Of a stretch of 64,000 bases of DNA, positions 52,769-58,190 are shown piece by piece. Below the pieces are notes generated by a model. It made no database searches and was not told the origin of the DNA. It saw nothing but the letters and a program-made list of their open reading frames with translations. Numbering within the stretch: position 1 is the first letter of the stretch; each line of letters starts with the position of its first letter. This stretch comes from Escherichia coli (lineage in GTDB: Bacteria; Pseudomonadota; Gammaproteobacteria; Enterobacterales; Enterobacteriaceae). The stretch lies in assembly GCF_003790525.1 (NCBI RefSeq), contig NZ_CP033635.1. One strand, 5' to 3'. The position numbers and the translations under genes are program-made.

Positions 52769-53245
52769 AATAGTAGTACTCCTGACTGAGATATATTTGA
52801 ATGAATACCTATAGGAAACCTCAATCGGTCAAAATTAGCCCAATAGATAAAAAGATAACCATACACGAAGTGATGTGGCTATCAGTCAATTACATTAAAT
52901 ATCATACAAAAATAAAATATCACCGATGTGACAACATCTATTTTCATTGATTTGATTCAATATAACAATAGATTGCAGAAGATTAACTTCCAGTTGCTTA
53001 AAAAATAAAGAAAAAAGTGTGGAAACAGGAGAATTTAAGTGATGTGTAAATTTATGAATGATTTTGTTTATTTATTTTGAAGAACATAAACCATTGTATT
53101 TTGTATGGATATGGTTAACTTAATGTTTATTATGATAATTAAGAATTACACTTACAATAACATCAATTAATAAATGGTTAATCATTTTTGATATATCGTA
53201 AGAATAATGTAGTTTTTAACACCATCCATGGTATCTCAACTATCT

Positions 53246-53848
53246 CTATAAAACAGCGTGACGCTGTCGTCCTCTGGCTCTATCCCAGATGCCGTAAAAA
53301 CGCCCTGCATTGCTGGCGGTATACCAGACAGTATGACGAATATTGCGATGCCCAAGATAATCCTGGATAAGTCGCGTATCTATTCCCATATTCGCCAAAG
53401 CAAAACCACACGAATGGCGTAACATGTGCGGATGAATCTCCAGTGACAACCCGGCATTACCACCGGAAGTCGAGATAATATGGTAAAACTGTTGCCGAGA
53501 AAGTGGATTCCCCTTACGTGATAAAAATACCCACTCGCTCTCAGCATGCGGATAAGAAGTACGGATACTCAACCAGTTTTTTAAAGCCTGAATTTCTTTG
53601 TTCAATAGCGGGTGCGTTGTTGAAAAGCCTTTTTTTAATCGATGGATATATATACACTTTGCCTTAAGATCAATATCCGAAATCCTCAATCGGCAAATTT
53701 CACTCGCCCGGAAACCATGAATAAAACAAAGCAAAGTCAGACAATAATTACGTGCAGCATGAGGCCCGGTATTTGCTGCTTTAAGGAGTGATTCGATTTC
53801 ACTATGGGTAAGGAAGTTCCTTTTTTTGTTATCAGCCTTATTCTTCAT
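53246..53848 (-). CDS. fimB: Tyrosine recombinase FimB (bidirectional switching)
   Basis: 200 aa; matches FimB. Confidence 0.9.
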   Translation of the reverse strand: MKNKADNKKRNFLTHSEIESLLKAANTGPHAARNYCLTLLCFIHGFRASEICRLRISDIDLKAKCIYIHRLKKGFSTTHPLLNKEIQALKNWLSIRTSYPHAESEWVFLSRKGNPLSRQQFYHIISTSGGNAGLSLEIHPHMLRHSCGFALANMGIDTRLIQDYLGHRNIRHTVWYTASNAGRFYGIWDRARGRQRHAVL

Positions 53849-54863
53849 CGTTTTCCCTTATAATTACAGACGCGCACTAGCTGTGCTGAGTTAGCAATAA
53901 TCCAACATTTTAATCCTGATTATGTTTATAAAAGCGAACGTTTGCTTAATAACTAACGTAAGTGGACCAGTTCTTCTGAGCGAACTTAAATGGAGTAGCG
54001 ATAGTTACTTATAATAACTTTGCCATACAAACGCCATGCTCTTGCATGCTATGTACCTTTATATATTTATCAATCTGATACGAATCTAATAATAACCCTC
54101 ATCATTAATGCAACTAATCTTATCTATATATCATGTGATATGTTCTGTAACAAGTAAAATCAACATAAAAAATTCAGCAAAATTTAATATTCGTTCAACT
54201 AGCCGTCTCACATATGACATTATTAGTCAACTGCATTTGCCACAAAATGGCTATTTCATGGAACGCAGTTATTTCTTAGTGGCTATTATCATGCTAATTC
54301 TTAGGTCCCTAGCGATTATTCCTGCCTGGTTCATCAGCTTACGCCATGAGATTGTTACATTCCTTTTTATCCTGGAGATATGGGGGAACGCAGGAGATGA
54401 TTTTTTCATCTACATCCGTTGGTAAATATGGCTTTGGTCACTACGACTTAAACCTTCCTCAATCACAGCTATTCGCCGGGCGATACGGCAAACAAACTAA
54501 GTGAAACATCATCCTGAAAACACCAACATCAACAAGCCTCTCCAGATCGACATCAGGAGTGACCAGTTACAAACCACAAACCAAGAAACATATTTCATGA
54601 TGAGAATTATGCTCAGCCTGATGGCGGGTAAACCCTTATTATCACCAAGCTCACTGCGTTAGCTTGCAAAGCTTTCCTTGTTTAGATTCTAAATAAAATT
54701 TTTATAAAACAGATAGTTAAAAGAAAATCTTTAGTTTTTTGAAGACCACCGCAAGTGTTCGTCTGGCTTCACATGGCATCTTCTTCTTAGAAAAAGATCG
54801 ACATATTTTGTGACACGAATTGCAAATCTGGTTTTGTTGTATGGATTGCGTGATTTTTGATCT

Positions 54864-54886
54864 GGTATAACAGGTATAAAGGTGCA
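54864..54886. promoter_or_regulatory. NanR-type operator (tandem GGTATA repeats) in the fimB-nanC intergenic region
   Basis: GGTATAACAGGTATAAAGGTGCA: two exact GGTATA hexamers plus a degenerate third, the repeat type NanR is known to bind. Confidence 0.55.
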
Positions 54887-55302
54887 CCACGATAGTCAAT
54901 GAGACTGGGCATCTCGTAATCTATGGCAAACATCACTTCAGTTCTTTCTCATCGGGTGATGAAAACGCACTTCAGTCAGAAAGGAATATGAAAATGAGAT
55001 CAACAGACACTCTATTTTATGACTCTGGGTAAAATGAATTGAGTAAGTGATATAGCTTACGAACATTCAAATCAATTAAACATCAGAATAGATTTTATAC
55101 TCAGGTATTTAATCTGGCTCTCTGTTTATTTAAATAATGTGGAAAGAGAATTTTCACAGGAGACCTTATACAAAAAATATAAAATACAGCTACTCGTTGC
55201 CAAAGACACTATAAGCCTGGCAAAAAATATTACACAACATAAATGCTAATTGTTTATGCGGGCTTTGTATTGCTTTCTGTATCCTACAAATGAGTGAAAT
55301 TT

Positions 55303-56019
55303 ATGAAAAAGGCTAAAATACTTTCTGGCGTATTATTACTGTGCTTTTCGTCACCATTAATTTCTCAGGCTGCGACACTGGACGTACGTGGTGGATATCG
55401 TAGCGGAAGCCATGCCTATGAGACTCGACTCAAAGTCAGTGAGGGATGGCAAAATGGATGGTGGGCAAGCATGGAAAGTAATACCTGGAATACCATTCAT
55501 GATAATAAAAAGGAAAATGCCGCACTCAATGATGTTCAGGTTGAAGTTAATTACGCGATTAAACTTGATGATCAATGGACGGTGCGCCCGGGAATGTTAA
55601 CGCATTTTAGCAGCAACGGCACACGCTACGGACCCTACGTAAAACTGTCCTGGGACGCGACAAAAGATCTTAATTTTGGCATTCGCTATCGTTACGACTG
55701 GAAAGCTTACCGACAACAAGACTTATCCGGTGATATGTCTCGTGATAACGTTCATCGTTGGGATGGATATGTCACTTACCATATTAATAGTGATTTCACC
55801 TTCGCATGGCAAACGACGCTATACAGCAAACAGAACGATTATCGCTATGCAAACCACAAGAAATGGGCGACGGAAAATGCATTTGTTCTACAATACCATA
55901 TGACGCCCGATATTACGCCATACATAGAATATGACTACCTTGACCGCCAGGGTGTTTACAACGGCAGAGATAATTTATCGGAAAACAGTTATCGCATTGG
56001 TGTGTCATTTAAACTGTAG
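55303..56019 (+). CDS. nanC: N-acetylneuraminic acid outer membrane channel NanC
   Basis: 238 aa from ATG 55303; signal peptide and KdgM-family beta-barrel. Confidence 0.9.
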   Translation: MKKAKILSGVLLLCFSSPLISQAATLDVRGGYRSGSHAYETRLKVSEGWQNGWWASMESNTWNTIHDNKKENAALNDVQVEVNYAIKLDDQWTVRPGMLTHFSSNGTRYGPYVKLSWDATKDLNFGIRYRYDWKAYRQQDLSGDMSRDNVHRWDGYVTYHINSDFTFAWQTTLYSKQNDYRYANHKKWATENAFVLQYHMTPDITPYIEYDYLDRQGVYNGRDNLSENSYRIGVSFKL

Positions 56020-56038: not shown

Positions 56039-57145
56039 ATGAATAAAACAATAATGGCGCTTGCTATCATGATGGCTTCATTTGCCGCAAACGCGTCTGT
56101 ATTACCGGAAACTCCTGTGCCATTTAAAAGTGGTACCGGAGCAATTGATAACGACACTGTCTACATTGGTTTAGGTAGCGCAGGTACAGCATGGTACAAG
56201 CTGGATACACAGGCCAAAGATAAAAAATGGACAGCGTTAGCTGCATTCCCTGGTGGACCGAGAGATCAAGCAACCTCTGCATTTATTGATGGCAATCTGT
56301 ATGTGTTTGGCGGCATTGGCAAAAACAGCGAGGGCTTGACTCAGGTATTTAATGACGTACACAAATACAACCCCAAAACTAATAGCTGGGTTAAATTGAT
56401 GTCGCACGCGCCGATGGGCATGGCGGGCCATGTGACTTTTGTACACAACGGCAAGGCTTATGTTACTGGCGGTGTTAACCAGAATATCTTCAATGGCTAT
56501 TTTGAAGATCTCAACGAGGCTGGAAAAGATTCAACCGCTATAGATAAAATCAACGCCCACTATTTTGACAAAAAAGCAGAAGATTATTTCTTCAATAAGT
56601 TTCTGTTGTCTTTTGATCCCTCAACACAGCAATGGAGTTACGCTGGCGAATCTCCCTGGTACGGAACGGCTGGTGCGGCGGTTGTGAATAAAGGTGATAA
56701 AACCTGGCTTATTAATGGCGAAGCCAAACCAGGATTGCGAACGGATGCCGTATTTGAACTTGATTTCACCGGTAATAATTTAAAATGGAATAAGCTTGAT
56801 CCCGTCTCATCACCAGATGGCGTCGCTGGCGGTTTTGCGGGGATAAGCAATGATTCTCTTATATTTGCCGGAGGGGCCGGATTCAAAGGTTCACGAGAAA
56901 ATTACCAGAACGGTAAGAACTATGCGCATGAAGGCCTGAAAAAATCATATAGCACTGATATTCATCTTTGGCATAACGGGAAATGGGATAAATCGGGTGA
57001 ATTATCGCAAGGTCGGGCCTACGGAGTATCATTGCCCTGGAATAATAGTTTATTAATTATTGGCGGTGCAACTGCAGGCGGCAAAGCGGTGACGGATTCA
57101 GTTTTAATTTCTGTGAAGGATAATAAAGTCACAGTACAAAACTAA
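56039..57145 (+). CDS. nanM: N-acetylneuraminate mutarotase NanM (Kelch repeats)
   Basis: 368 aa from ATG 56039; signal peptide MNKTIMALAIMMASFAANA. Confidence 0.9.
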   Translation: MNKTIMALAIMMASFAANASVLPETPVPFKSGTGAIDNDTVYIGLGSAGTAWYKLDTQAKDKKWTALAAFPGGPRDQATSAFIDGNLYVFGGIGKNSEGLTQVFNDVHKYNPKTNSWVKLMSHAPMGMAGHVTFVHNGKAYVTGGVNQNIFNGYFEDLNEAGKDSTAIDKINAHYFDKKAEDYFFNKFLLSFDPSTQQWSYAGESPWYGTAGAAVVNKGDKTWLINGEAKPGLRTDAVFELDFTGNNLKWNKLDPVSSPDGVAGGFAGISNDSLIFAGGAGFKGSRENYQNGKNYAHEGLKKSYSTDIHLWHNGKWDKSGELSQGRAYGVSLPWNNSLLIIGGATAGGKAVTDSVLISVKDNKVTVQN

Positions 57146-57209: not shown

Positions 57210-58190
57210 ATGAACGCAATAATATCGCCCGATTATTACTATGTTCTTACCGTTGCTGGTCAGTCTAATGCCATGGCGTATGGCGAAGGACTGCCATTAC
57301 CGGACAGGGAAGATGCGCCTCATTCCAGAATTAAACAATTAGCGAGATTTGCGCATACGCATCCCGGAGGCCCGTCATGTCACTTTAACGACATTATTCC
57401 TCTGACTCACTGCCCACACGATGTTCAGGATATGCAGGGTTATCACCATCCTCTGGCAACGAATCATCAAACACAGTACGGCACCGTTGGCCAGGCACTG
57501 CATATTGCACGAAAATTACTGCCCTTTATTCCTGATAACGCAGGGGTTCTCATCGTTCCGTGTTGCCGTGGCGGATCGGCTTTTACCGCGGGCAGCGAAG
57601 GGACATATTCAGAACGGCACGGAGCCAGCCATGATGCTTGTCGTTGGGGATCGGATACTCCGCTATACCGGGATTTAGTCAGCAGAACGCGAGCCGCACT
57701 GGCAAAAAATCCGCAGAACAAATTCCTCGGCGTATGCTGGATGCAAGGCGAATTTGACTTAACGACCAGTGACTACGCGTCACACCCTCAACACTTTAAT
57801 CATATGGTTGAAGCCTTTCGTAGGGATCTAAAACAATACCATTCTCAGCTTAATAATATTACTGACGCGCCGTGGTTTTGCGGCGATACCACCTGGTACT
57901 GGAAAGAAAAATTCCCTCATGCGTATGAAGCTATTTATGGCAATTATCAAAATAATGTTTTAGCCAATATTATTTTCGTCGACTTCCAGCAACAAGGTGA
58001 AAGAGGACTGACGAACGCGCCTGTTGAAGACCCGGACGATTTAAGCACGGGATATTACGGTTCAGCGTACCGGTCACCGGAGAGCTGGACGACGGCACTG
58101 CGAAGCAGTCATTTCAGCGCGGCAGCCCGTCGGGGGATTATTTCTGACAAGTTTGTAGAAGCAATTTTGCAGTTTTGGCGCGAAAGGTGA
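57210..58190 (+). CDS. nanS: 9-O-acetyl-N-acetylneuraminate esterase NanS
   Basis: 326 aa from ATG 57210; third gene of nanCMS. Confidence 0.85.
   Translation: MNAIISPDYYYVLTVAGQSNAMAYGEGLPLPDREDAPHSRIKQLARFAHTHPGGPSCHFNDIIPLTHCPHDVQDMQGYHHPLATNHQTQYGTVGQALHIARKLLPFIPDNAGVLIVPCCRGGSAFTAGSEGTYSERHGASHDACRWGSDTPLYRDLVSRTRAALAKNPQNKFLGVCWMQGEFDLTTSDYASHPQHFNHMVEAFRRDLKQYHSQLNNITDAPWFCGDTTWYWKEKFPHAYEAIYGNYQNNVLANIIFVDFQQQGERGLTNAPVEDPDDLSTGYYGSAYRSPESWTTALRSSHFSAAARRGIISDKFVEAILQFWRER

Follow-up and report, generated by a model that had tools for sequence, protein, structure and literature searches.

A probable NanR operator common to the divergent nanCMS operon and fimB in an Escherichia coli genome

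Described NanR and NagC sites of the fimB-nanC region

The closest described counterpart of the site reported here is the NanR operator (O_NR) of the nanC-fimB region of E. coli K-12, known from the Blomfield and Plumbridge laboratories. In K-12, Neu5Ac and GlcNAc lower fimB expression and FimB-mediated OFF-to-ON switching, and genomic SELEX with purified NanR gives a peak in the nanC/fimB spacer. Two proposals have been made for the long-range activation of fimB: that RNA polymerase or some other protein is contacted, or that the DNA structure near the promoter changes. The NagC operators are reportedly 212 bp apart, with an IHF site that we take to lie between the two in the K-12 module, and both regulators, NanR and NagC, are said to protect adjacent Dam sites.

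NanR binds a two-repeat oligonucleotide (KD 25 nM) about as tightly as the three-repeat operator, forming two complexes instead of three; a single repeat is bound poorly, longer spacers weaken binding and so does Neu5Ac (Horne et al., PMC8012715). At nanA, nanC and yjhB, NanR also binds no more than 5 bp away from GATC sites (PMC5155068), and the K-12 nanA and nanX (yjhB) operators both read GATCT GGTATAACAGGTATAAAGGTATA. The NagC site is a 23-bp quasi-palindrome in which only TT at -6/-5 and AA at +5/+6 are invariant, with C or G at +/-11 in sites of high affinity (PMC4288165). Relative to the fimB transcription start, the SlyA operators O_SA1 (TTAGCATGATAA) and O_SA2 (CTAGGGACCTAA) span -179 to -168 and -194 to -183, respectively (PMC3173223).

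The operator and its surroundings in the window

The window is the whole stretch of 64,000 nucleotides of E. coli DNA that was analysed (contig NZ_CP033635.1), and all positions refer to it. The divergent genes fimB and nanC are separated by an intergenic spacer of 1454 bp, in which the operator lies. The genes and sites of the locus are listed below.

51811 and 52116: 9-bp inverted repeats of the 314-bp invertible element fimS, present as the pair TTGGGGCCA / TGGCCCCAA
52172-52768, minus strand: fimE, intact, 100% identical to K-12 FimE
53246-53848, minus strand: fimB, recombinase gene, an intact 200-residue open reading frame 99.5% identical to K-12 FimB
54118, minus strand: predicted fimB transcription start, derived from O_SA1, with a 5' leader of ~270 nt
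54286-54297 and 54301-54312, minus strand: SlyA operators O_SA1 and O_SA2, matching TTAGCATGATAA and CTAGGGACCTAA exactly and serving as the positional anchor
54589-54611, plus strand: candidate NagC-type site O_NC2, CATATTTCATGATGAGAATTATG, with TT/AA at +/-5,6, C at -11 and G at +11
54707-54719, plus strand: tentative IHF-like core, AAACAGATAGTTA, about midway between the NagC-type sites
54735-54740, plus strand: run of six T, with one extra T relative to T5, lineage-specific
54796-54799: Dam site GATC adjoining the first NagC-type site; TATC in some strains
54802-54824, plus strand: candidate NagC-type site O_NC1, CATATTTTGTGACACGAATTGCA, with TT at -6/-5, AA at +5/+6 and C at -11
54859-54862: Dam site GATC, one base before O_NR
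54864-54886, plus strand: O_NR, GGTATAACAGGTATAAAGGTGCA
55303-56019, plus strand: nanC, sialic-acid porin gene, full length, 238 residues, 100% identical to K-12 NanC
56039-57145, plus strand: nanM, full length, 98.9% identical to K-12 NanM
57210-58190, plus strand: nanS, full length, 96% identical to K-12 NanS

O_NR is arranged as GGTATA-ACA-GGTATA-AA-GGTGCA, with exact hexamers at 54864-69 and 54873-78 and a degenerate third hexamer (GGTGCA, matching at four of six positions) at 54881-86. The spacers of 3 nt (ACA) and 2 nt (AA) are those of the nanA and nanX operators, and with at least two GGTATA repeats in direct tandem at short, fixed spacing the site agrees with the definition of the NanR (GntR-type) operators of the E. 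coli sialoregulon. It lacks the perfect third GGTATA that would accommodate three NanR dimers, as does the K-12 nanC operator; since GGTGCA is found in that accepted operator, the degenerate repeat describes O_NR as a member and does not exclude it from the class. Given the binding of the two-repeat oligonucleotide, two perfect repeats at native spacing should be enough for cooperative NanR binding. Lone GGTATA hexamers show no enrichment in the window (27 observed, 20.5 expected), and the signal therefore lies in the tandem arrangement: the pattern GGTATANNNGGTATA has one copy in the 64-kb window, and 0.11 copies are expected by chance when up to one mismatch is allowed. From the end of O_NR to the nanC ATG (55303) there are 416 bp, and from its start to the fimB ATG (53848, minus strand) 1015 bp. 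The preliminary description, which had placed tandem GGTATA hexamers ~420 bp from nanC and ~1 kb from fimB, was accurate in both respects, the exact 23-mer being present there on the plus strand and the distances agreeing when counted to the two start codons.

Over its full length the fimB-nanC spacer can be aligned with the MG1655 spacer, and the block GATCTGGTATAACAGGTATAAAGGTGCACCA is identical at the homologous position. Overall it is ~96 to 98% identical to K-12; the differences include a T added between the NagC sites and, at 54712 within the IHF-like core, G in place of A. The K-12 operator is the same 23-mer, flanked by the same GATC and likewise offset by 62 bp from the first NagC-type site; its distance class from the fimB start and its flanking genes are also the same. 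With O_SA1 as the anchor, O_NR falls at -746 to -768 from the predicted fimB start (published value ~760) and the second NagC-type site at -471 to -493 (published value ~470). The agreement of the O_NR position with the published value, taken with the SELEX peak in the K-12 spacer, therefore indicates that the mapped K-12 NanR site and the motif coincide. The comparison with the mapped site that had been advised beforehand finds the same sequence at the orthologous position, with the published position on the motif and the motif conserved.

We regard the window site as very probably O_NR, the NanR operator common to the divergent nanCMS operon and fimB, and put the probability of this reading at about 0.93. 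O_NR is an already known and experimentally characterised operator which, being intact and identical to that of K-12, is therefore ordinary here. Its main role is probably that of operator for the nanCMS promoter, and the effect on fimB is a second one, exerted at long range.

The search for a nearby NagC site, which had also been advised, located two sites that fit the published rule, O_NC1 at 54802-54824 and O_NC2 at 54589-54611, displaced from O_NR towards fimB by 62 and 275 bp. The pattern common to both (CATATTTNNTGANNNGAATT) has only these two copies in 64 kb, with 0.01 expected. The IHF-like core between them is regarded as tentative because it has two mismatches to the consensus WATCAANNNNTTR; the K-12 core (AAACAAATAGTTA) has one. 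A scan for the IHF consensus with at most one mismatch returned only AT-rich matches, at 54692-54706, and the candidate at 54707-54719 is recovered with two. E69, a divergent Escherichia, retains the frame AAACA..TAGTTAA of this core.

A CRP-like TGTGA-N6-TTGCA element at 54809-54824 overlaps O_NC1 and lies 55 bp before O_NR, compared with 54 bp at nanA. Because of this similar spacing, the nanC promoter is placed at O_NR, which it probably overlaps, with a transcription start predicted near 54878-54879 and a leader of ~425 nt. By analogy with nanA, the TATAAC within repeat 1 of O_NR fits a promoter at this position, and nanCMS lies directly downstream, at 416 bp. A scan of the nanC strand with the sigma-70 consensus gave no promoter at O_NR. 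An Rfam scan of 53200-55400 at E<=1, covering the long nanC and fimB leaders, gave no match.

fimB, fimE, fimS and nanCMS are all intact in the window, and the functional targets of the module are present. The window does not include nanR and nagC, which lie elsewhere in the genome; more than 99% of E. coli isolates are reported to carry nanRATEK (PMC10088187). Two open reading frames occur inside the spacer, at 54108-54425 (plus strand, 105 residues) and 54717-54899 (minus strand, 60 residues), the second of which overlaps O_NR on the opposite strand; the K-12 annotation has no gene where either falls. Farther away, collinearity with the annotation of E. coli 702/18 places an ibeA-containing island at ~17100-37300, between iraD and hypT, with ptsP/dhaKL-like genes, gcl, hyi, a glycerate kinase gene, dhaR, ibeA and nhaC.

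Conservation of the module and variation in the spacer

The fimB-nanC spacer is carried by 5109 of the 5426 complete E. coli genomes compared, in most of which it is 95 to 99% identical; the whole spacer reaches at least 99% identity in only 17. The 38-bp operator core is found at 99% identity or above (exact) in 4505 of the 5426, and the 95-bp block that takes in the first GATC, O_NC1 and O_NR at 99% or above (exact) in 3938. When the spacer was aligned among 11 E. coli strains, 185 of 1474 columns were variable, with the most variable part between the two NagC sites; O_NC2 was invariant in all 11, and O_NC1 and O_NR in ten, with changes only in F11. In the divergent Escherichia E69 (labelled E. 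coli; from the scan of GTDB species-representative genomes), the spacer is ~79% identical over ~1 kb, yet the ~90-nt block over O_NC1 and O_NR has two substitutions; O_NC2 of E69 has one change inside the 23-mer and two more just downstream. In these alignments O_NR and both NagC sites stand out as sharp conserved islands in a spacer that otherwise evolves fast.

The second repeat is GGTACA (window 54877) in the clade of F11, 536 and L107, which leaves one perfect GGTATA. A degenerate operator in a major E. coli lineage was suspected from F11 and 536, and this was rejected when the 536 allele was found in only 41 complete genomes, a minor clade. F11 also has TATC in place of the GATC adjoining O_NR (window 54859). 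Two matches outside E. coli look like contamination: a 3.3-kb contig in a 'Bacteroides' MAG (CAUHML010000277.1; L010) is the E. coli fimB-nanC region, and a 265-bp contig of Methylobacterium mesophilicum (NZ_BPQU01000128.1; L076) is the E. coli nanX promoter.

Beyond this spacer, the first 20 nt of O_NR (GGTATAACAGGTATAAAGGT) and the preceding GATCT are identical at K-12 nanA and nanX, and the third hexamer alone differs. The exact 20-mer occurs in 90 stretches from many Enterobacterales among the GTDB species-representative genomes, nearly all of them with upstream sequence of the nanA type; the 20-mer is conserved at nanA-type promoters in dozens of genera of this order, among them Citrobacter, Enterobacter, Kluyvera, Rahnella, Buttiauxella and Hafnia. 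Clades differ in the third repeat (GGTATA, GGTATG, GGTACA or GGTCTA), and the GGTGCA form is confined, among the 90 stretches, to E. coli DNA, which agrees with the literature, where several co-regulated nan operators are ascribed to E. coli alone.

The Dam site at 54859-54862 lies within 5 bp of O_NR, and a GATC at the same one-base distance is shared by the three K-12 NanR sites and by 54 of 91 operator copies (85 from the cross-species scan and the rest from K-12, 702/18 and the window). The GATC and the operator might accordingly be read as mainly a Dam-methylation-dependent epigenetic switch of the pap or agn43 kind instead of a simple operator, the more so as methylation at these sites shifts in the course of growth and a dam mutant expresses nanC at a lower level (PMC5155068). 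We consider this unlikely, since ~40% of the extracted operator copies, and F11 as well, lack the GATC, nanC is not known to have a heritable ON/OFF state and the authors of the methylation study call an effect on NanR binding unconfirmed (PMC5155068). The other Dam site, at 54796, is TATC in several strains (L103, L104, L010 and L085), and methylation at that position is therefore dispensable in some lineages.

The nearest relative of the window is E. coli 702/18, with which it is collinear and from which it differs by 6 mismatches in 47.9 kb. In 702/18, the spacer is interrupted at window 54659-54662, between O_NC2 and the cluster of IHF-like, O_NC1 and O_NR sites, by the IS5-family element ISKpn26 (L002 6815-8010); the window spacer is uninterrupted and lacks this element. 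IS1 is found within or at the edge of the fimB-nanC spacer in other genomes (H4 and H28).

One small departure of the window from the other sequences compared is the spacing of its NagC-type sites. O_NC1 and O_NC2 are 213 bp apart in the window and 212 bp apart in all 12 other sequences compared (K-12, nine E. coli, contig L010 and E69), while the offset between O_NR and O_NC1 is 62 bp in the window and in all 12. The persistence of the 212-bp distance across deep divergence suggests that NagC may form a phase-dependent loop in the module. The extra-T spacer allele is found in ~17 to 19 of about 4960 complete genomes, including SMS-3-5, and also in 702/18. Together with the change in the IHF-like core, the extra T could shift or impair the control of fimB through its GlcNAc/NagC arm and yet spare the NanR arm, an outcome that we consider unlikely; were the NagC arm retuned, fimbriation in this lineage would respond differently to host amino sugars.

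Another reading of the same differences is that O_NR serves in this lineage only as the nanCMS repressor site, the fimB link having been weakened or lost through the altered NagC/IHF architecture. The 213-bp spacing is in its favour, as 212 bp is kept even where the spacer is only ~79% identical, and so are the confinement of the extra-T allele to so few genomes and the second mismatch in the IHF-like core. Nevertheless, O_NR, O_NC1 and O_NC2 are identical to their K-12 counterparts, the 62-bp offset is unchanged and 1 bp shifts the helical phase by only ~34 degrees. IHF is also said not to be required for activation of fimB by NanR, which counts further against this reading, and we consider it very unlikely.

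The upstream regions of nanC and nanX are paralogous (84% identity over 77 bp; window 54807-54883 and nanX-side L004 4568-4644), and this kinship and the degenerate third repeat would favour regarding the motif as a chance match or as a dead, functionless relic of promoter duplication, which is scarcely credible given a chance expectation of 0.11 copies even with one mismatch allowed, conservation far above that of the surrounding spacer and SELEX binding in the K-12 spacer; a chance match was rejected as an explanation of O_NR on the expected count and the conservation.

Predicted regulation and comparison with related operators

For the shared operator O_NR, the present analysis shows that the sequence is that of K-12, where it lies, which sites surround it and how far it is conserved; that NanR binds, in which direction it regulates and which effectors act on it is taken from the K-12 literature. 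In the absence of sialic acid, NanR dimers would bind the GGTATA repeats cooperatively and repress the nanCMS promoter, which O_NR would overlap. NanR, together with NagC at its two operators and IHF between them, would raise fimB transcription from ~750 bp away. Uptake of Neu5Ac would loosen NanR, and its breakdown product GlcNAc-6-P would inactivate NagC. On induction, nanCMS expression would increase and that of fimB decrease, with less FimB-driven OFF-to-ON inversion of fimS and fewer type 1 fimbriate cells as the predicted outcome. This K-12 regulation presumably operates in the present strain also, and the coupling of sialic acid to fimbriation is probably intact, judging from the sequences at hand.

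The published accounts differ in sign: the 2016 SELEX overview (PMC4797297) has NanR activating nanCM and repressing fimB, and the opposite is given in PMC3173223 and by the laboratories that characterised the system.

The preliminary description had both NanR and NagC controlling fimB from far upstream as sialic-acid regulators. Far-upstream control is supported by the K-12 identity, the position and the SELEX peak, with the refinement that O_NR is probably in the first place the nanCMS operator; NagC senses GlcNAc-6-P and not sialic acid itself. The operator ties host sialic acid and GlcNAc to NanC uptake and to the phase switching of the pro-inflammatory type 1 fimbriae, and its intactness says only that the strain has the standard E. 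coli wiring.

Among the other K-12 NanR operators, that of nanA (nanATEK-yhcH) has a perfect third GGTATA and lies ~60 bp from its own ATG, whereas O_NR stands ~420 bp before nanC and has a second, divergent target gene at 1 kb. The nanX (yjhB) operator shares the same first 20 nt, has a perfect third repeat and is followed by a ~430-bp leader to the ATG, so that the distance from operator to start codon is ~420 to 430 bp at both nanC and nanX. Unlike O_NR, it has no upstream site that fits the NagC rule when the sequence is read, and no link to fimB; nanXY is absent from the window. The NagC sites of the module resemble the two-operator looping systems of nagE-nagB, glmU and chb, in which paired NagC operators lie at a fixed distance with a DNA-bending site between them, tentatively matched in the window by the IHF-like core. 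They differ from these systems in that NagC at O_NC1 and O_NC2 would activate a promoter ~470 to 700 bp away, instead of repressing by occlusion or looping.
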